Shown: in pieces, positions 11,893 to 20,718 of the stretch
Position numbering within the stretch: the stretch's first letter is position 1
Layout of the letters: each line of letters opens with the position of its first letter
Source of the DNA: Escherichia phage vB_EcoM_011D4
Reading direction: 5' to 3' (one strand)
DNA: 64,000 nt
Sequence record: MT478991.1
Position numbers and translations under genes: made by a program
The notes under the pieces: model-generated
Seen by the model: only the letters and a program-made list of their open reading frames with translations
Database searches by the model: none
Told to the model about the DNA's origin: nothing

Positions 11893-12096
11893 TTATTTCC
11901 TCTCTGATAATTCTTTCATCAAGCTGTCGATCTTTGCTCTGTGTTCTGGCGTGTTTGTCATCTCTGCTAATTTGCTCAGAGATTCACTGGTGATCCGGTT
12001 GGATTCTTCCAGTGTTTCAACGACAATTGGCACAATCTTTTTATTGTTGTACAGAAATGCAATATAACCGCCTTCTGGATATTCTTTCATAATCAA
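11893..12096 (-). CDS. Hypothetical protein (67 aa)
   Basis: Small ORF whose stop lies 3 nt after the gp52 stop-start overlap. Confidence 0.4.
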   Translation of the reverse strand: MIMKEYPEGGYIAFLYNNKKIVPIVVETLEESNRITSESLSKLAEMTNTPEHRAKIDSLMKELSERK

Positions 12097-13454
12097 CCCT
12101 TCTTAAGTTCTTTAAGATCTTTCTTATATTCCTTCATTGCGGTCGTCTTTGTCCAATACTCATATTCACTATGATGTTTATCGGCATCTTTGACCAGTCG
12201 ATCATACTCTTCTTGAGTAACGCTATACAATGGCATAGAAACGAGTTTATCGGCGTATGGACGCAGTTTTTCATGTCCATTGATAGATTGCATTACCTCG
12301 GCCTTTTTCTTGCCCTGTAGCTCGATTTCGCCCTTAATTACAAGGTCGATAAATTCGGCTTTAGCCATTGCATAATTGTATGCTTCCAGCGTTTCCGCTT
12401 GCATCAATTCAATGCGTTTATCGACATACCCTAATCGGATTTCGACGAATCGACGGATCAGATCGCTCGCTTTCTCGAATACTTCAACTAAGCCACGTTC
12501 ATTAACTACCACGATATTCTGGGCTACTAACTGCGTTAGTTTAAAATCCTTCATGATTTGCTCATGTCGAGCGTATTCATCTTCGCTTTTGAAATAATCG
12601 CGTTTCAGTGTTACTTCAAATCTGAATCCGTCCTTAGAGCAACGGTCATTATACGATACAATCAGATCTTTTTCTTCCAGCGCATCCAGTACCGCTACAT
12701 ATTCTTCACGGTCGAACTTATAAGGAACTTCTGATATTGTCAGTTTAGTCTTGCCGTTTAGTTCATATGTACCCTCAAGAATCACACCATCGCGATCATC
12801 TCGCGGGATAACTTTACCCGTGAATTTTGGGAATTGAACACTAGGTTCTTTATCCAGTTTTCCGGCAAGTGCTAGCTCTGTGCATTCAATGAGGCTTTCC
12901 AGTGAATGCGGTAAAATGTCGGTTTTATACCCTGTAGCAATACCACTAATACCATTTGCCAATACCATTGGCACAACTGGCAAGTAGAACGCTGGCGGGA
13001 TGTGTTCCAGGTCTTCGTGCTTAGGTGCGCAATTCATATCTTTATAGATTTTAAAGAAGTTTTCATGCACACGAGCAAAAATATAACGTGCTGCACCTGC
13101 TTTCTGGACTAAACGCGATCCGAAGTTACCTTGACCGTCAAGCAGTGGAGTATTATTGCTCCATGTATTCGCCATGAGTGATCCGGCTTCTACGGCATTA
13201 GTTTCCCCGTGGTGATACCCCAACTCAGCGACACCAGATCCAATATCTGCCATCTTACGGAATTTCTTACGGTCGCCTTTACTCTTTTGCAAAGCACATT
13301 CCATAACAAAGCGTTGCACTGGTTTAAGACCATCAACTAATTGAGGAATCCCGCGTTCCTCGGCAGAATAGATCGCATATTCCTTAGCTTCATTATGTAC
13401 AATGCTTTCAAGGCTGCGGTAAGTAACTGATTTATTCATCTTCACCTCATACAC
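12093..13454 (-). CDS. 52: DNA topoisomerase II medium subunit (gp52, GyrA-like)
   Basis: 453 aa; DGLKPVQRF motif typical of GyrA/topo II breakage-reunion domain; LGYHHGE; position next to the rIIB/rIIA/39 block as in T4. Confidence 0.9.
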   Translation of the reverse strand: MYEVKMNKSVTYRSLESIVHNEAKEYAIYSAEERGIPQLVDGLKPVQRFVMECALQKSKGDRKKFRKMADIGSGVAELGYHHGETNAVEAGSLMANTWSNNTPLLDGQGNFGSRLVQKAGAARYIFARVHENFFKIYKDMNCAPKHEDLEHIPPAFYLPVVPMVLANGISGIATGYKTDILPHSLESLIECTELALAGKLDKEPSVQFPKFTGKVIPRDDRDGVILEGTYELNGKTKLTISEVPYKFDREEYVAVLDALEEKDLIVSYNDRCSKDGFRFEVTLKRDYFKSEDEYARHEQIMKDFKLTQLVAQNIVVVNERGLVEVFEKASDLIRRFVEIRLGYVDKRIELMQAETLEAYNYAMAKAEFIDLVIKGEIELQGKKKAEVMQSINGHEKLRPYADKLVSMPLYSVTQEEYDRLVKDADKHHSEYEYWTKTTAMKEYKKDLKELKKG

Positions 13455-13809
13455 GCTTACAAATCACATTCTTTACTTTATCAGATTTATCAGCCCAATC
13501 CAATAGCCATTTTAACGGAAGGATTGAAACAATAAACGGGGCAGCAATCAAAGCAAACATGATACACCGGATAATCAGGAAAGCGCAAGTAACAAAGCTA
13601 GCGATAGCGATCCCGACAAAACAAAATACCATAGAAAACAGAGTAATGATATAGAAAGGCCAGAATACCCACTCCCGCATCTTAACGCCTTTGTATTCTC
13701 TGAATTGCTTAAAATCTACAAACAACTCTCGGATAGACGCGTACAGGACCGAAAAATCATCTTTCATTGCTCTGAATGAGCAATCTTCTATTTTAGAATG
13801 ACCTAGCAT
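13447..13809 (-). CDS. Predicted membrane protein (120 aa)
   Basis: Two long hydrophobic segments (FYIITLFSMVFCFVGIAIASFVTCAFLIIRCIMFALIAAPFIVSIL). Confidence 0.45.
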   Translation of the reverse strand: MLGHSKIEDCSFRAMKDDFSVLYASIRELFVDFKQFREYKGVKMREWVFWPFYIITLFSMVFCFVGIAIASFVTCAFLIIRCIMFALIAAPFIVSILPLKWLLDWADKSDKVKNVICKRV

Positions 13810-13811
13810 TA

Positions 13812-14105
13812 TTAACCGCCTTTCATCATTGATACTGGAATTGTTTTCTGATTTGTGTATAATTGTCCTACTTCAATTTTTTCTTGAATCACCACGACGT
13901 TACAATATCCACTGTCTTTAAGTTTTCTGATAATGACTCGCTTTTGTTCGTCGGTGATAGGATTGACTGTTCTCACCAATTCACCGCAAATAATAGCACC
14001 ATCTTTACAATTACCAGTAACTTTCATGCTACGACCGTGAACAACAACCACATCACCGCAAATCACATTTTCGTCGTCGTATTTGGTAATAACCGTGACC
14101 GTCAT
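13812..14105 (-). CDS. Hypothetical protein (97 aa)
   Basis: Compact - strand ORF. Confidence 0.4.
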   Translation of the reverse strand: MTVTVITKYDDENVICGDVVVVHGRSMKVTGNCKDGAIICGELVRTVNPITDEQKRVIIRKLKDSGYCNVVVIQEKIEVGQLYTNQKTIPVSMMKGG

Positions 14106-14150
14106 AATGTATTCCCTCTAAGAAAGGCCGCTTTGCGCGGCCTATGTTGA

Positions 14151-14477
14151 TTATTGTTCTACAGTATAACCGTTGTTTTCAAGCCATGCAATAACAATCT
14201 TCTCACCAATTTCATCGAGCATTTCATCAGATCCATATTCTTTGATGAAAATCGATGGATCATTATTGCTTACTACGTGCTGAATCACAACATGTTCAGG
14301 AATTGCGTCTAGCAGTTCGCTATGATCATACTCATTAACGATATCTTCAACACTAACATTATTAACCAAATCAACATCATCCATAGTCACAGTAACGCGA
14401 CCGGACGGACGCAATGAATATTGGCTACTTTCAACTTCAACATGTGCACTTTCGCAAGTAACTTTCATATCAACCAT
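14151..14477 (-). CDS. Hypothetical acidic protein (108 aa)
   Basis: Compact - strand ORF; a GGCCGC-TTTGC-GCGGCC hairpin lies downstream at about 14120-14140. Confidence 0.4.
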   Translation of the reverse strand: MVDMKVTCESAHVEVESSQYSLRPSGRVTVTMDDVDLVNNVSVEDIVNEYDHSELLDAIPEHVVIQHVVSNNDPSIFIKEYGSDEMLDEIGEKIVIAWLENNGYTVEQ

Positions 14478-14491
14478 AATTAATTCCTCTG

Positions 14492-15484
14492 TTAGTAATG
14501 GCTAAAACCTTCGGTTACATCTTCAACCACATAGTAACGATGACAGCGCATTTTGGCATTCGCATAATCTTTCGGAATACTTACAACGTGACGAGGATCA
14601 ACTTTGCATTTAATGATTCGGCCTCGTCCACCGCCATAGTGTGGAATATAGTGTTTCGCTGCAACGTGGAGGCCATTAGAGCAAGTGCGATCATCATCTG
14701 GGTCAACGTCTTTACGCTTCATTTTAACCGTGCGCCCTGGGCTATTATCAAACGTATGAGTAAAGAAATCTTTATAATCAACATCAACACGTTTCCATGC
14801 ATAGAAACAACCATCTTCCCCGATCTCAATGTCGTTGTGTTCTAAGAAGTCAAACAGACGATCTACCGCCTTACGGCTAGGGTTTTTCTTGCACTTCTCA
14901 AAGAAGTTCAGATAGTGCGTATATGGCTTATTCTCTTTAATAGACTCAACAACTCGACGAGTCAGATTATTATCAAGAACAATATTATGATAATACACAA
15001 TACCATTTTCGATACGGAAAGCGCCGTGATAATATACTTCAACCGCTTTCTTAATGTCAATCAGCGTAATTGCTTTAATAAAATCATTCTGCTTAACTGC
15101 TTCCAGTGCTTCCTTAAAGTTAACATGTGATGGATCAGCAGTATAAACAATGTCACCGCATGTAATAGTAATAAACTTAGTTGAGGCTATGGCTACGATT
15201 TTTGAGGTAGTAGTCACGGGCTTTTTTGCGCGTTCACCACCTTTTCCTTTACTTGTTTTACGGCGTGCTTTACGTTTTTCTAGTGCCTTGCGACCTTCCG
15301 CTACTGCGTCTTTCTGAATCAGTAATACACGGGAGGCAGTACGACGAGATACCCCAAATGCTGCCGCAAGTGCTTCGCGGGTAGTAAACTTACCTTCGCC
15401 CCACTGTTTAGCCAGTTTGATTTGTTTTTCAGAATCCAGGCATTGAACGTTACGGTCAGAGACGGTGATTTTTGCTTTAGTCAT
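14492..15484 (-). CDS. rIIB: rIIB protein
   Basis: C-terminal half matches T4 rIIB as recalled (AVDRLFDFLEHNDIEI, FYAWK, FDNSPG, CSNGLHV, DVVSIP, DYANAKMR, YVVEDVTE); lies next to rIIA. Start at ATG 15484 (MTKAK) with AGAGGA RBS. Confidence 0.8.
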   Translation of the reverse strand: MTKAKITVSDRNVQCLDSEKQIKLAKQWGEGKFTTREALAAAFGVSRRTASRVLLIQKDAVAEGRKALEKRKARRKTSKGKGGERAKKPVTTTSKIVAIASTKFITITCGDIVYTADPSHVNFKEALEAVKQNDFIKAITLIDIKKAVEVYYHGAFRIENGIVYYHNIVLDNNLTRRVVESIKENKPYTHYLNFFEKCKKNPSRKAVDRLFDFLEHNDIEIGEDGCFYAWKRVDVDYKDFFTHTFDNSPGRTVKMKRKDVDPDDDRTCSNGLHVAAKHYIPHYGGGRGRIIKCKVDPRHVVSIPKDYANAKMRCHRYYVVEDVTEGFSHY

Positions 15485-15546
15485 AGTATTCATTCCTCTA
15501 TTAGTTGGGCGACTATCGCCGCCCGATTCACATCATTATAACAGAA

Positions 15547-15678
15547 TTATTTTGCTTCGACAACCTTGCGGATTGTGCGGTCTGATACATTATAGATTCG
15601 TGCCAGTTCGCCTTTAGTCAAGCCGCGAGCGTATTGTTTACGGATGGTTTCTTTCTGGATAGCGGTCAGTTTAGTCAT
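15547..15678 (-). CDS. Small helix-turn-helix protein (43 aa) between rIIA and rIIB
   Basis: ATG at 15678 with GAGGTGA RBS; MTKLTAIQKETIRKQYARGLTKGELARIYNVSDRTIRKVVEAK; HTH-like segment resembles the rIIB N-terminus (TREALAAAFGVSRRTASRVL). Below ORF-track threshold. Confidence 0.45.
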   Translation of the reverse strand: MTKLTAIQKETIRKQYARGLTKGELARIYNVSDRTIRKVVEAK

Positions 15679-15689
15679 AATATCACCTC

Positions 15690-17798
15690 TTAAAATTTAA
15701 CATTCTTAACCAGTTTCATAAAGTCTTGTGCGCGTTTGTCGTTATGCAGAATACGATACCAGTTATCTACAATATCATACAGTAACGGGCTATTCTCTTT
15801 AAACTTCGCACAAACTGCTTTAATTCGTTCGTTTGCTGCCGTGAATTTTTCATCACAGATCTTTTTAGTTTCTTCGTCCATAATCCAACGAGTACGAAGG
15901 AGTAACTTGGAAACCTCTTTATTATAATGACGACCGTACAGTCTGTCAATAAATTCTGGAACACAGCGTTCTAGTTCATCGTCATGAAACAACATAGTGA
16001 TCACACCCAGATATTCGCCATACCCCAGATGATTGGTCTTAACCTTCTTAGCCAGACCAGCCAGCTTACCGCGAACAAATTCTAGCGCACATTCCAATTG
16101 TTCGTCAACGAGATATTTTTGTGTCTCGTTTCGAGTAATAATATACTTTGTTACCCCGAAGTAGTCAAGCGCCGTGTGTAATGTATCTTCATTATAGATC
16201 GATTGACGGCTACGGCTTTCGAATGCATCACCCACACGGAACATATGCAAACCTGATAACTCGCGAATCTCTGCCGCTTTCATGTGATGGCTGGTTTTAT
16301 GCCAACTGTCACCAATCTTTTCCATGATATACACGTTAGGCAGCTTGGGAGTAGCTTCACGTTGTGTACGCTCGGTCTTCTCCGGCTTAACTGCTTTAGC
16401 ACGCAGATCATCGGCCTCTGATACCTTAATCACGGTCATTTCAGAATCATCATAATACTGTTTGATGTACTCGAAAGTCTCCATATGTTTTTCGTTGTTC
16501 TGACGGAACACCAGTACCTTTTTATTGATTCCGTATTCCTGGACCATGCCGTTAAGAGTCAGTGCACGCAGTTTCGGTTTATCGGTATCATCAATAAGAC
16601 ACGTAATATCTTCTTTATGCATCCATACAAAATGCGTAATGTTGTATTGACTGCTAACGAAAGCAGGGCGCAATTTACTGATTGTGTGACGAGTACGATA
16701 CAGAGTATACACCTGACCTTCTACGTCATTTGGCGAATCTTTACCCGCATTCACAAACTTATTATAGATTGCTACCGGATCATCCCACTGCCCGATCTTA
16801 CCCATCTTGCTAATAATATTGCGTTGAGTCGATGAATACTCGCTCATAAATTGCGCAAGTTTACGCTCTGTTTTAATGTTGGCGATCTTCTCTTTAACCT
16901 TTTCCAACATCATTTCATTGATTTCTGCAATGCGTTTTTCGATGTTCGCTTTAGTATCAATTGACAAGTGAACTTCTTCACGCGATGGCATCAGGTCCAG
17001 ATCACCCAACTCAAAATTAATGTAAATGGTCTGGTGCTGGCGGTTTACAGCTTCTAACCACGTTCCGCGAACATATTCATACGGGATCGGATACTGGATC
17101 TTACCCATGATTGCATATACTACATAGGAATCGTTATCACGACCATTGCAAACATAATAATTATCAAAGCTAGGGAAATAATTAATTTCGATTGCATTGA
17201 TATTAGGTTTGTGTTCCCCAAAATGACGAAGTACAAATTGTGCTTCTCGATGCCATGTCTGAATGTCTTTTTCTTTCACCGGAATAGTGATTTTCAGACC
17301 ATTGTCTTCATAGGTCGGTTCGTCGAAAATCTGCACCATTTTCGGCATAGAGTTTTGCACAAATGCCGTAAAGCCATAAGCGCGACCATTGTAATAGTTT
17401 ACGATTGTAAAGGTGTCAGTGTAGCTATAAGCAGATTTCGCACCTAAACCAAAAGATCCGATATAATCATTAGTCTGGTCTTTTGTTGATTCAAAGTAAA
17501 CCGTAAACAGTTGTTCTAATTCTTTCTTAGACGGAATACCAGTACCATAATCACGCACAGAAAAATACGGTTCGATTGCAGTCGGTAAATGAATATCAAA
17601 CGGACGATCTAAGGTTCCGGCTTCTTTGTGAGTGTCGGTAGCATTGCACGAATACTCACGGACGCAAGCACGTTCACAATATTGATAGGTATTCTTAGAA
17701 AGCACCATAAAAGCCTTGCTACTTGCTTTCAGTGAAAAATCAACCGCACCGCTCAAGTCACTGCCAAATACTTCTTCATTATCAATATGCATTTTCAT
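15690..17798 (-). CDS. rIIA: rIIA protein (GHKL-type ATPase-like N-terminus)
   Basis: 702 aa; N-terminal blocks VREYSCNATD, RDYGTGI, DYIGSFGLGAKSAYSYTDTFTI match the rIIA ATPase-like domain as recalled; adjacent to rIIB. Confidence 0.9.
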   Translation of the reverse strand: MKMHIDNEEVFGSDLSGAVDFSLKASSKAFMVLSKNTYQYCERACVREYSCNATDTHKEAGTLDRPFDIHLPTAIEPYFSVRDYGTGIPSKKELEQLFTVYFESTKDQTNDYIGSFGLGAKSAYSYTDTFTIVNYYNGRAYGFTAFVQNSMPKMVQIFDEPTYEDNGLKITIPVKEKDIQTWHREAQFVLRHFGEHKPNINAIEINYFPSFDNYYVCNGRDNDSYVVYAIMGKIQYPIPYEYVRGTWLEAVNRQHQTIYINFELGDLDLMPSREEVHLSIDTKANIEKRIAEINEMMLEKVKEKIANIKTERKLAQFMSEYSSTQRNIISKMGKIGQWDDPVAIYNKFVNAGKDSPNDVEGQVYTLYRTRHTISKLRPAFVSSQYNITHFVWMHKEDITCLIDDTDKPKLRALTLNGMVQEYGINKKVLVFRQNNEKHMETFEYIKQYYDDSEMTVIKVSEADDLRAKAVKPEKTERTQREATPKLPNVYIMEKIGDSWHKTSHHMKAAEIRELSGLHMFRVGDAFESRSRQSIYNEDTLHTALDYFGVTKYIITRNETQKYLVDEQLECALEFVRGKLAGLAKKVKTNHLGYGEYLGVITMLFHDDELERCVPEFIDRLYGRHYNKEVSKLLLRTRWIMDEETKKICDEKFTAANERIKAVCAKFKENSPLLYDIVDNWYRILHNDKRAQDFMKLVKNVKF

Positions 17799-17812
17799 AA
17801 TATAATACTCAC

Positions 17813-18070
17813 TTAATTAAAATCTTCTTTGTCCATCTCTGCGTAGATTACATCCCACGCCCATAAATCAATAAACGCATTATATGTCACGGTGCAATCG
17901 TTGTCAATCACTTCTTTCGCATATTTCTTGATGTTTTCGTAGGAAACTTGCGGATCAATTTTGTGTTTACGAAGATGCGCATATTCATACCTCAAACACT
18001 CCATAAACAGGTCCATCGATTTCTTTTCTCGATGACACTTGGCGATCAGAAAATCAAAACTTCGACTCAT
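17813..18070 (-). CDS. Hypothetical protein (85 aa)
   Basis: ORF immediately upstream of rIIA. Confidence 0.4.
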   Translation of the reverse strand: MSRSFDFLIAKCHREKKSMDLFMECLRYEYAHLRKHKIDPQVSYENIKKYAKEVIDNDCTVTYNAFIDLWAWDVIYAEMDKEDFN

Positions 18071-18080
18071 TTTCTACTCC

Positions 18081-18275
18081 TTATACATTTTCAATCACCC
18101 ATTGCAGATGGGCTTCTGCGTCAACCAGTTCAGCGCGGCTTTTCTCTAAGCACTTGCTGTATTCTTTACGTTCCCAATCAGCAATTTCGTTTTTCAAGAC
18201 TTCTTCATAGTAAGCAATTACGCCTTTCAGATCGGAAACTCTACGGCTTGCCAGTTCGATGTAATGGTTACGCAT
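18081..18275 (-). CDS. Hypothetical protein (64 aa)
   Basis: ORF carrying the conserved leader AAGGAGAATCAAA-ATG. Confidence 0.4.
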   Translation of the reverse strand: MRNHYIELASRRVSDLKGVIAYYEEVLKNEIADWERKEYSKCLEKSRAELVDAEAHLQWVIENV

Positions 18276-18471
18276 TTTGATTCTCCTTTGTTACTAGATA
18301 ACGAATTTGGTCTTGCATTGCGATCAGTTCCCAGCGTGCTACTTTCATCATGGAAACTGACTCTTTGAACATAATATTAGCTTTTTCCTTCTCCCCTGTC
18401 AAGTAGATTTCTGCAATTTTTTCACAAAATTTTTGAGTTTCTTCATTCTTAAACGGTTTCATATAAGTCAA
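18268..18471 (-). CDS. Hypothetical protein (67 aa)
   Basis: ORF downstream of the early promoter at 18493. Confidence 0.4.
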   Translation of the reverse strand: MTYMKPFKNEETQKFCEKIAEIYLTGEKEKANIMFKESVSMMKVARWELIAMQDQIRYLVTKENQNA

Positions 18472-18492
18472 CCTTTTGTTTTCGATGGGGAC

Positions 18493-18521
18493 ATTATGAT
18501 ATATCCCCTATCTGGTGTCAA
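18493..18521 (-). promoter_or_regulatory. Sigma70-like early promoter (TTGACA-N17-CATAAT)
   Basis: - strand TTGACAccagataggggatatatCATAATgtcccc. Confidence 0.5.
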
Positions 18522-18529
18522 CAACTTTT

Positions 18530-18829
18530 TTAATCTTTTTTCAGTGCGTCCATTACTCGCTCTGCGATCAGTTCTCGTAAGCACTGATAACCATGATATT
18601 TGATGGCAATGTCACGCAGATCATTAACCAGTTCTCGCACTTCATGGTCTTTCAGATCGTCTCTGTATTTCGATTTAACCGTGTCTTTAGGTGGATTGCG
18701 GATAACCTGAAAACCTTGTTCTGCAATCACTGCGGCTTCTCGCTGGCGTTCATGTTGTACGGTGTTTTTGATCAGGTCCGCTTCCATGAACTTTGCCATG
18801 CTCATCATCATGTTATTCTTTTTGCTCAT
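18530..18829 (-). CDS. Hypothetical protein (99 aa)
   Basis: Track start lies upstream of the promoter at 18864; ATG at 18829 (MSKKNNMMMS...). Confidence 0.4.
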   Translation of the reverse strand: MSKKNNMMMSMAKFMEADLIKNTVQHERQREAAVIAEQGFQVIRNPPKDTVKSKYRDDLKDHEVRELVNDLRDIAIKYHGYQCLRELIAERVMDALKKD

Positions 18830-18863
18830 TATTAAATCCTCATAAAAGAAAAGGGAGACTCCC

Positions 18864-18891
18864 ATTATAGAGAATCTCCCTTTTATGTCAA
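18864..18891 (-). promoter_or_regulatory. Sigma70-like early promoter (TTGACA-N16-TATAAT) with flanking 9-bp inverted repeat
   Basis: - strand TTGACAtaaaagggagattctcTATAATggg directly after the gp39 stop; AAAGGGAGA...TCTCCCTTT inverted repeat. Confidence 0.55.
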
Positions 18892-18894
18892 GTG

Positions 18895-20718
18895 TTATGA
18901 TTGCATCCAAATTTTGCGCTGATCTGCATCTTCACTATAGAGCAAATCGAATAGCTCTTTATAGTTTTCCGGCAACGTGATGATTTCCATTACAGGATCG
19001 TTGATCACGCGATGATAATCTGATTCTGTAAGCGATGCTAACCCTTTGATATATCGAATGCTATAACCTTTGATATTATCTCGGTCGTTCTCAAAATCTT
19101 CTAGGTCATAATACCATCGAACATCATTACCTTTCTTTTGTTCCGCAATGATAATAGGTGTTTTGATAAACCGGATTCGTCCATCTTCGAACAATTCAGG
19201 CCAACGAGCAAAGAAAGAAATCAGACTAGGTTTAATAGACCCGATCCCGTCAGTATCAGCGTCTGTCATAATCGCAATATTTTTGTATTGCATAACTTCC
19301 AGCGCATCAACACCAAATTGCAAACCAGTGATCGCCATGATGTTAAAAATTTCGGCGTTCTTAACGATCTTTGCCTCTGGTTGTTCCCACGTTGTAAGAG
19401 TTTTACCTCGCAACGGGAAACCGCCATGTAAATCTTGATCACGTACAGAGATCAGATAGTTGATCGCGGAATCACCTTCCGTCAAAAACAGGGTAGTTTC
19501 TGCGTCAGTTCCAATAAGGTTAGCTTTAACGTGTTTTGCTACCTTAGCCCGTTTTGCTGCCTTTGCTGCCTTAGTCGCTGCCGCTTTATCTGCTGCCTCT
19601 TTGCGTGCCAGGACTACAGCAATAATAGGCATGATAATGTTTTCTTTCTTCGCAATGACTTTAGCCAGCTTTTTAAAATCAAGATCAATATGACGCTTGA
19701 TATCACCAGTTGGATTAGTCAATCGTTCTTTTGTCTGTGAATCAAAACGGAGGTTTGGCAATTCACGAACAATAAGAATACAGGTCAATCCAGACTTAAC
19801 CGCAGCTTTAGTAACATCAACCTTATATTCTTTCTTGATTCGTTTTACAATCTCTTCACAAAGATCATCTGTCACGTAGTCTACGTGTGTTCCCCCGTTT
19901 TTGGTAAACAGACCATTAGCAAATGATACTGATTTAAAACCTTCACCTTCAACCGCAGGAACTAGGGCAAGTGAAAAGTTTTTATCTTCAATGACAAACG
20001 GATCATCATTGTATAGTTTAGCATAATCCTTGAACTTACTAACAATACGTTTACCATTAAACTTAAACGTGATCTTAGGAAATATTACGCTCAATGATTG
20101 CAGACGATCATGAACAATATCTAAAACAGAGTTGTCCATCATATAACCTTCGAAGTGGTCGAAGTCTGGGCAAAATGTAACCTTTGTTCCCTTCAATTTT
20201 GATGGTTTCGATGACCATGTGATATTTTCAGCACCGTTTGTACATTGAACGGTCATTTCTGTTTCGCCGTCACAGGTCACACCAGTAAACCAATCGCTAA
20301 AGAAATTTGACAACGACGACCCCACACCGTTCATCCCTTGCGTTAGTCGATTTGTATCATCAAAGTTAGACCCTGCTTTTGTTCGTGTCCATGCGGCTAC
20401 AGGTTGCGGAATCTGCGTGCCCTCTGGGGTAGTAACCATATGTTGAGGAATACCGCGACCATTGTCTGTTACCGTAACAATATTGTTTTGGATATCGACG
20501 CTAATCACATTGGCAAATTCAAAGTTAGTGCGGATCGCCTCGTCTACAGAGTTGTCGATGATCTCATCAATGATTTTAACCAGTCCTGGAACATATGAAA
20601 TTTTTGTCCATTTACCGAACAGGAAACGTTGATGTTCTTCGTAAGTTGTTGATCCTATATACATTCCTGCACGCTTAAGGACATGTTCACGATCAGATAA
20701 AATGCGAAACTCACTCAT
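18895..20718 (-). CDS. 39: DNA topoisomerase II large subunit (gp39, GyrB-like), unsplit
   Basis: 607 aa; GyrB/ATPase motifs (RAGMYIGS, DNGRGIP, VDYV...); single continuous ORF with no gene-60 split. Confidence 0.9.
   Translation of the reverse strand: MSEFRILSDREHVLKRAGMYIGSTTYEEHQRFLFGKWTKISYVPGLVKIIDEIIDNSVDEAIRTNFEFANVISVDIQNNIVTVTDNGRGIPQHMVTTPEGTQIPQPVAAWTRTKAGSNFDDTNRLTQGMNGVGSSLSNFFSDWFTGVTCDGETEMTVQCTNGAENITWSSKPSKLKGTKVTFCPDFDHFEGYMMDNSVLDIVHDRLQSLSVIFPKITFKFNGKRIVSKFKDYAKLYNDDPFVIEDKNFSLALVPAVEGEGFKSVSFANGLFTKNGGTHVDYVTDDLCEEIVKRIKKEYKVDVTKAAVKSGLTCILIVRELPNLRFDSQTKERLTNPTGDIKRHIDLDFKKLAKVIAKKENIIMPIIAVVLARKEAADKAAATKAAKAAKRAKVAKHVKANLIGTDAETTLFLTEGDSAINYLISVRDQDLHGGFPLRGKTLTTWEQPEAKIVKNAEIFNIMAITGLQFGVDALEVMQYKNIAIMTDADTDGIGSIKPSLISFFARWPELFEDGRIRFIKTPIIIAEQKKGNDVRWYYDLEDFENDRDNIKGYSIRYIKGLASLTESDYHRVINDPVMEIITLPENYKELFDLLYSEDADQRKIWMQS

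Follow-up and report, generated by a model that had tools for sequence, protein, structure and literature searches.

In phage T4, rIIA and rIIB are separated by a gap of only 11 nt, and their products, RIIA and RIIB, counter RexAB. The start of the B cistron is said to be largely dispensable, as was reportedly found by Crick et al. in 1961 and again by Champe and Benzer in 1962. RIIB proteins of the T4 type carry at their N-terminus a helix-turn-helix (HTH) domain of three helices (residues ∼ 7–45 in T4), which is fused to a linker and a C-terminal domain. rIIB orthologues have been predicted to be specific transcription factors (Iyer et al., 2021; PMC7824862), and expression of RIIB triggers a bacterial CARD/gasdermin defence (bioRxiv 10.1101/2023.05.28.542683). 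A T4 rIIA–rIIB fusion that resembles r1589 and is without the rIIB start is hypomorphic with respect to plasmid-borne RexAB (PMC8594841).

The locus described here lies in a 64 000-nt stretch of Escherichia phage vB_EcoM_011D4 (MT478991.1), the whole of which we denote the window. Between its rIIA and rIIB genes is an ORF of 43 codons, the mini-gene, whose product has much in common with the N-terminal HTH of T4-type RIIB: the three-helix architecture, the signature L..QK..I...Y..G.TK..LA..Y.VS.RTI.RV and the position in the genome, immediately ahead of the rIIB body. It differs in being separate from the linker and C-terminal domain of RIIB, with its own start, stop and Shine–Dalgarno (SD) sequence, and in coexisting with a second, diverged HTH which is still part of RIIB. 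The mini-gene itself is already known to the databases, as a hypothetical protein and as the family PHROG 15481 (an entry with 'unknown function' and no stated link to rIIB). What is new is the link to the RIIB N-terminal domain, which is absent from the literature that we found; searches on the rIIB HTH, on RB49 rIIB, on Krischvirus transcriptomes and on r1589 gave no mention of the mini-gene and no expression data.

Organization of the rII locus

Positions 14400–16000 of the window match 58 phage records at 95–99.8% identity, all of them RB49/Phi1-like Krischvirus coliphages. The features of the locus are as follows.

15690–17798, minus strand: rIIA, 702 aa, from the ORF list and the GenBank annotation of phage ELT4 (99.8% identical)
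15690–15692, minus strand: rIIA stop codon TAA, which abuts the SD of the mini-gene
15683–15689, minus strand: mini-gene SD GAGGTGA, directly 3′ of the rIIA stop and 4 nt from the ATG at 15678
15547–15678, minus strand: mini-gene, 43-aa ORF (MTKLTAIQKETIRKQYARGLTKGELARIYNVSDRTIRKVVEAK) between rIIA and rIIB; PHROG 15481
15535–15563, minus strand: promoter-like site of the sigma-70/T4-early type, from a consensus scan
15507–15524, minus strand: GC-rich stem-loop GGGCGGC-GAUA-GUCGCCC (7 bp, 4-nt loop), from the fold of the spacer
15494–15498, minus strand: rIIB SD GAGGA, 9 nt from ATG 15484 and 0 nt from ATG 15493
14492–15484, minus strand: rIIB, 330 aa, starting MTKAKIT; 993 nt in GenBank records

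The longest rIIB ORF begins at ATG 15493 (MNTMTK..., 333 aa). The likely start is nevertheless the second ATG, 15484, because it is spaced 9 nt from GAGGA and agrees with the GenBank annotation, whereas ATG 15493 touches the SD; RIIB would then be 330 aa and not 333 aa long, and annotations should set the rIIB start at 15484. This bears on the length of the spacer between rIIA and rIIB, which the first-pass annotation of the sequence had put at 196 nt (15494–15689). That value is correct for a start at 15493 but becomes 205 nt with the likelier start. The remainder of its description of the locus was borne out: the 43-aa ORF is present with exactly the peptide sequence quoted, it has its own GAGGTGA ribosome-binding site, a GGGCG...CGCCC hairpin stands between it and rIIB, and in T4 the two rII genes are indeed essentially adjacent. 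rIIA and rIIB are also adjacent or overlapping in Jiaodavirus, Dhakavirus, Marfavirus and two metagenomic T4-like lineages.

The mini-gene is a genuine gene

The peptide is encoded in all 58 Krischvirus records with at least 95% amino acid identity, at a single place in each record listed by tblastn, and is annotated as a CDS for a hypothetical protein in both records whose annotation was read (ELT4 and GEC-3S). A search of 5.8 billion proteins yielded five more variants, each exactly 43 aa long and with 98–69% identity, and six divergent metagenomic lineages have a homologue of 43–46 aa between their two rII genes. The lineages with a mini-gene that we looked up are L008, L009–L012, L013 (45 aa) and L019 (46 aa); the gene order rIIA – small ORF – rIIB was found in all contig look-ups of peptide variants and of divergent rIIB homologues, and the mini-gene is retained in L019 although RIIB of this lineage is just 42% identical to that of the window. 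In every divergent lineage found the mini-gene has its own start, stop and SD, with GAGGTGA, AAGGTGA or GGTGA motifs preceding it in L009, L011, L013, L019 and L008. A scan of IMG/VR with patterns of the mini-gene family gave Krischvirus contigs only, plus an unrelated XRE-type protein (L024).

Comparison with the divergent lineages (Nei–Gojobori) gave pS values of 0.52–0.72, which is near saturation, with pN of 0.09–0.23 and dN/dS of 0.04–0.31. The dN of the mini-gene (0.10–0.28) is lower than the values for rIIB (0.32–0.56) and rIIA (0.54–0.78). Helix 2, the turn and helix 3 of the product (TKGELAR.YNVSDRTIRKVVE) are almost invariant, and no member of the family deviates from NVSDRTIRK in the recognition helix. 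Given this conservation and the dN/dS values, the mini-gene is a selected coding sequence. It is a genuine stand-alone gene, the third rII cistron of the RB49/Phi1 (Krischvirus) clade, and ought not to be passed over as an ORFan. The first-pass annotation had proposed a comparison of related rIIA–rIIB junctions, with a sequencing frameshift in a longer rIIB ORF in mind. The mini-gene turned out to be a separate ORF in every lineage found, and a longer rIIB ORF that absorbs it was seen nowhere. A read-through fusion of rIIA and the mini-gene was ruled out, as the ATG of the mini-gene is out of frame with rIIA.

Predicted fold of the mini-gene product

The AlphaFold2 model of the product has three helices (residues 5–17, 21–28 and 32–40) with a mean pLDDT of 88.9. 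Its best Foldseek matches are the DNA-binding HTH domains of IstA, CENP-B, Hin and γδ resolvase (TM 0.75–0.84, rmsd 1.0–1.6 Å). The minimal tri-helical fold is common to the mini-gene product, the DNA-binding domains of Hin and γδ resolvase, the N-terminal HTH of IstA and the N-terminal domain of CENP-B. However, these are domains of larger enzymes or regulators, whereas the HTH of the mini-gene is the entire protein and has no recombinase or transposase context. The best Pfam match is CENP-B_N (PF04218; 26.0 bits, cut-off 21.2, E = 7.3e-6); this assignment to the psq/homeodomain-like HTHs is generic and uninformative on function. The match above the cut-off and the tri-helical model agree with the earlier description of the peptide as HTH-like. 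The product also matches the 43-position profile of PHROG 15481 from end to end (E = 3e-34), and by residue count it has 11 basic and 4 acidic residues, a net charge of ∼ +7. As modelled, the mini-gene product is a minimal, very basic, three-helix HTH protein. Neither RIIB nor the mini-gene family profile gave a meaningful match when searched against PDB sequences.

Relationship to the N-terminal HTH of RIIB

Nearly all of 120 RIIB homologues open with this HTH module. BLASTP aligns the mini-gene product with residues 7–45 of T4 RIIB (41% over 39 aa, E = 5e-4), and when the peptide was compared with 50 697 phage records by tblastn, the non-Krischvirus matches listed lie nearly all in the first ∼ 45 codons of rIIB; these rIIB matches belong to other T4-type genera and include the best-scoring ones. 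The match of the mini-gene product to the RIIB family PHROG 609 is marginal (14.9 bits, limited to the HTH positions), and we therefore built a dedicated domain HMM from 39 RIIB N-terminal HTHs, taken solely from lineages without a mini-gene. On this rIIB N-HTH profile the peptide of the window scores 45.6 bits and the mini-gene family 40–52.5 bits, versus 25.7–27.4 bits for the resident HTH of Krischvirus-type RIIB; the resident HTH of L019 RIIB scores 39.2 bits. The scores of the mini-gene family thus exceed the 26 bits of the best Pfam match. Among the 1016 stop-to-stop ORFs of the window, the profile finds just the mini-gene (E = 3e-13) and the RIIB N-terminus. Judged by these scores (40–52 versus 26–27 bits), it is the free peptide that carries the canonical rIIB HTH signature, and the attached Krischvirus copy that appears to have drifted. 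Two stand-alone HTHs (P0197 and P0253) that score on the same profile were considered as further 'mini-rII' genes and rejected, as both lie on short, unrelated contigs where rII genes are absent from the vicinity.

The first-pass annotation had read the HTH-like segment as a mirror of the N-terminal segment of the adjacent rIIB, as if the rIIB HTH had been duplicated or split off. The second part of this reading is supported by the profile, with its score of 45.6 bits and its two matches in the window. The first part stands for rIIB N-terminal HTHs as a class and for T4 rIIB, but not for the direct neighbour: the mini-gene product has 8/20 identities with the adjacent segment, which is not significant in a pairwise comparison, and BLASTP against the adjacent RIIB finds no alignment (E = 18). 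A recent local duplication of the neighbouring rIIB was rejected on this evidence.

In the AlphaFold2 model of the window RIIB, the diverged N-terminal HTH (helices 18–29, 36–43 and 47–56) is followed by a long helix (58–77), a disordered basic linker (78–95) and a C-terminal domain (96–330). This RIIB body (PF26926, Phage_T4_rIIB) is absent from the mini-gene polypeptide, which ends at a TAA after 43 aa; the RIIB ORF begins at least 60 nt downstream. The C-terminal α/β domain (14492–15205, residues 96–330) is modelled with pLDDT mostly > 90. Foldseek found no credible counterpart for it in the PDB, solved structures gave no sequence match, and its fold appears to be structurally uncharacterized.

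Two relatives are informative. L015 has the same gene order, no mini-gene and a canonical RIIB N-terminus. The RIIB of L008 (4685–6064, P0009, 459 aa) has three tandem HTH modules (residues 4–42, 59–98 and 146–183), and there is a 43-aa mini-gene upstream of it too. Together with the profile scores and the RIIB model, the canonical N-terminus of L015 and the tandem copies of L008 indicate that the 5′ module of rIIB is a duplication-prone unit, free-standing here and present three times in L008 RIIB. Repeated N-terminal segments are also seen in RIIBs of the Aeromonas-phage type (P0075 and P0107, 432–433 aa), with a different type of HTH.

A promoter-like site and a stem-loop precede rIIB

The promoter-like site consists of a −35 hexamer TTGTCG (15563–15558), a spacing of 17 nt and a −10 hexamer TATAAT (15540–15535) within the extended motif TGnTATAAT, with 10/12 matches to the consensus. 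The −35 hexamer is inside the last codons of the mini-gene, and the annotation of phage GEC-3S lists a promoter here. This strong promoter-like site is not mentioned in the first-pass annotation. From its sequence, rIIB transcription is predicted to start at ∼ 15529–15527. Analogous promoter hexamers occur in L008, L009, L011/L012 and L015.

The fold of the spacer has an energy of −19.2 kcal/mol (z = −3.5), and the stem-loop of the window would be located at about +4 to +21 of the transcript from the predicted promoter. Such a position, close to the 5′ end, is typical of hairpins that stabilize mRNA. An intrinsic terminator was rejected, since the stem is followed by AACUAAUAGAGG and not by a U-tract, and the scan gave 0 terminator-like sites. 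Stable GC stem-loops are present in every lineage with a pre-rIIB spacer (L009 2705–2769, L012 1708–1776, L013 3449–3500, L008 4615–4684 and L015 3418–3500), but their sequences are unrelated and their placement varies. The inverted repeats (GGGCGGC, TGCGCCC, GCGCC, ACGTCCTGA and GCGTCCC) are wholly different between lineages. The stem comes after the −10 hexamer in the window, L008 and L013, and brackets it in L009/L012; in L015, which is without a mini-gene, the stem is before the promoter and is accompanied by a partial U-run. In L019 the three genes overlap (ATGA, GTGATG), there is no spacer, intergenic promoter or repeat, and the peptide is still conserved.

Origin and expression of the mini-gene

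The best explanation of the data as a whole, which we consider on balance to be probable, is that the mini-gene is a real third rII cistron that encodes an rIIB-derived HTH, made with RIIA and acting in trans. The mini-gene would have arisen when the HTH module at the 5′ end of rIIB was duplicated or detached. The free copy would afterwards have kept the canonical recognition helix NVSDRTIRK, and the copy attached to RIIB would have drifted from RTIGRV to RTASRV. On sequence evidence an rIIB origin is likely rather than proven, because the best single-domain matches in the protein library (see below) include HTHs of homing endonucleases; with only ∼ 40 residues, the origin is beyond phylogenetic resolution.

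The peptide is expected from the early rIIA transcript, because in all lineages its SD either touches the rIIA end or overlaps with it. The strong SD that touches the rIIA stop would direct translation of the mini-gene from the early rIIA mRNA, and the product would be made together with RIIA; rIIB would have a separate promoter and a 5′ stem-loop just downstream of the mini-gene. We suggest that the peptide may supply in trans the nucleic-acid- or partner-binding activity that the canonical RIIB N-terminal domain supplies in cis, and that as a free-standing protein it would uncouple this activity from RIIB. The idea builds on an RIIB HTH whose role is itself only a prediction.

Alternative explanations

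The mini-gene is very short and has no annotated function, and might be taken for a non-functional sequence, whether a chance ORF, a decaying fragment or the artefact of a frameshifted rIIB. However, it is intact in 58/58 Krischvirus records, it has kept length and frame despite near-saturated synonymous sites, its protein evolves more slowly than RIIA or RIIB, and it is preceded by its own SD in every lineage; rIIB, for its part, has a complete HTH and a start codon of its own. The comparative data effectively refute a non-functional mini-gene, to which we assign next to no probability. A different origin is suggested by a search with the mini-gene family profile in a library of 1.84 billion representative proteins, which gave 304 proteins with E ≤ 0.001. 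The family is represented in this library by one 50% cluster representative (P0001) and one 32-aa fragment. About 25 non-rIIB domains (up to 48.8 bits) outscore the best RIIB (33.5 bits) on the profile, and six of the ten that were scanned against Pfam carry an HNH_3, GIY-YIG or T5orf172-type endonuclease domain, the HTH being C-terminal in those HNH_3 and GIY-YIG proteins. The C-terminal HTHs of HNH_3/NUMOD4 and GIY-YIG proteins and the HTH of a T5orf172 protein are among the highest single-domain matches (42–49 bits). The former have the motif 'KLT..Q...IR..Y..G...LA..Y.VS..TI' in common with the mini-gene product, whose N-terminal part 'KLT..Q...IR..Y' is typical of such endonuclease domains, and T4-type phages often have homing endonuclease genes between conserved genes. 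The mini-gene could thus be the domesticated DNA-binding domain of a former HNH_3/NUMOD or GIY-YIG homing endonuclease between rIIA and rIIB, its nuclease lost and its HTH given a new role. We regard this as unlikely. Endonuclease HTHs vastly outnumber RIIBs in the library, and sampling alone would therefore give the endonucleases the higher maximum score; the same library proteins, scored with the rIIB N-HTH profile, reach a median of 23 bits (maximum 46) compared with 40–52.5 bits for the mini-gene family. The 196-nt spacer is too small for a nuclease remnant, and neither strand of the 196–205 nt spacer contains a nuclease-like ORF. Homing endonuclease genes are sporadic, whereas the mini-gene, which has no nuclease domain, is fixed at one locus clade-wide and under purifying selection, being found in 58/58 Krischvirus records and, without a change of locus, in six divergent lineages. 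There is no second copy in the Krischvirus genomes (one place per record listed), and rIIB is favoured as the source because the mini-gene lies right next to the 5′ end of rIIB and because L008 RIIB has the same module in tandem. A 32-aa protein of the same library (P0159) shares its first 13 residues with the mini-gene product but not the remainder (MTKLTAIQKETIRFHFSRGLTKCDVSRMYNFS); possibly the mini-gene was called in truncated or frameshifted form in some assembly.

The function, too, could be other than that of an RIIB domain acting in trans. The fold of the peptide matches sequence-specific DNA binders, the protein is strongly basic by residue count, and a promoter-like site overlaps the 3′ end of the mini-gene and is followed by a GC-rich inverted repeat, which in L009/L012 brackets the −10 hexamer. 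These features would suit a small local transcription factor that binds the downstream inverted repeat and promoter and so controls the transcription of rIIB. However, the sequences of the inverted repeats differ completely between lineages and NVSDRTIRK is invariant, a pattern that fits an RNA structure better than an operator, and L019 conserves the peptide without an intergenic promoter or repeat. A local regulator of this kind is therefore distinctly improbable in our assessment, and the inverted repeat is unlikely to be an operator for the peptide; because the hairpin sequences vary and the recognition helix does not, we favour an RNA element for the hairpin.

Implications for RIIB

Returning to the rIIB-derived cistron that we favour, the canonical HTH is in this clade a 43-aa protein in its own right, more conserved than RIIA or RIIB. 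That the module has been kept separate and is the more conserved part implies that it has an important function which is separable from the rest of RIIB. A bolder and rather doubtful proposal is that RII of the Krischvirus clade is a three-component system (RIIA, free HTH and RIIB), in which the canonical activity of the RIIB N-terminal domain has been released to act in trans and the tethered copy has a different specificity. The target of the free HTH might then be DNA, or a partner from the host or from a defence system. If this were true, the split could, for instance, change what is visible to host sensors of RIIB without loss of the HTH function, and nature would have detached the N-terminal portion of RIIB that was deemed largely dispensable for B function in classical T4 genetics.

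The fold and the evolutionary mechanism are both ordinary; the locus is historically central and the mini-gene is unusually well conserved. As a natural handle on the RIIB N-terminal domain, its product is a minimal reagent for the mapping of binding sites and interactions and for trans-complementation.

Surroundings of the locus

In the window, the rII genes and a few small ORFs are flanked by the genes of topoisomerase II subunits (12093–20718 in all, minus strand), with the large-subunit gene at 18895–20718 and the medium-subunit gene at 12093–13454. The same order is found in L008, L013, L015 and L019. In T4 and in L017/L020 the rII neighbours differ and include denB, ndd and a SprT-like gene. 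RIIA of the window (15690–17798) has weak, sub-threshold matches to GHKL ATPases (HATPase_c_3, 17.7 bits), which fits the published assignment of an N-terminal GHKL domain.
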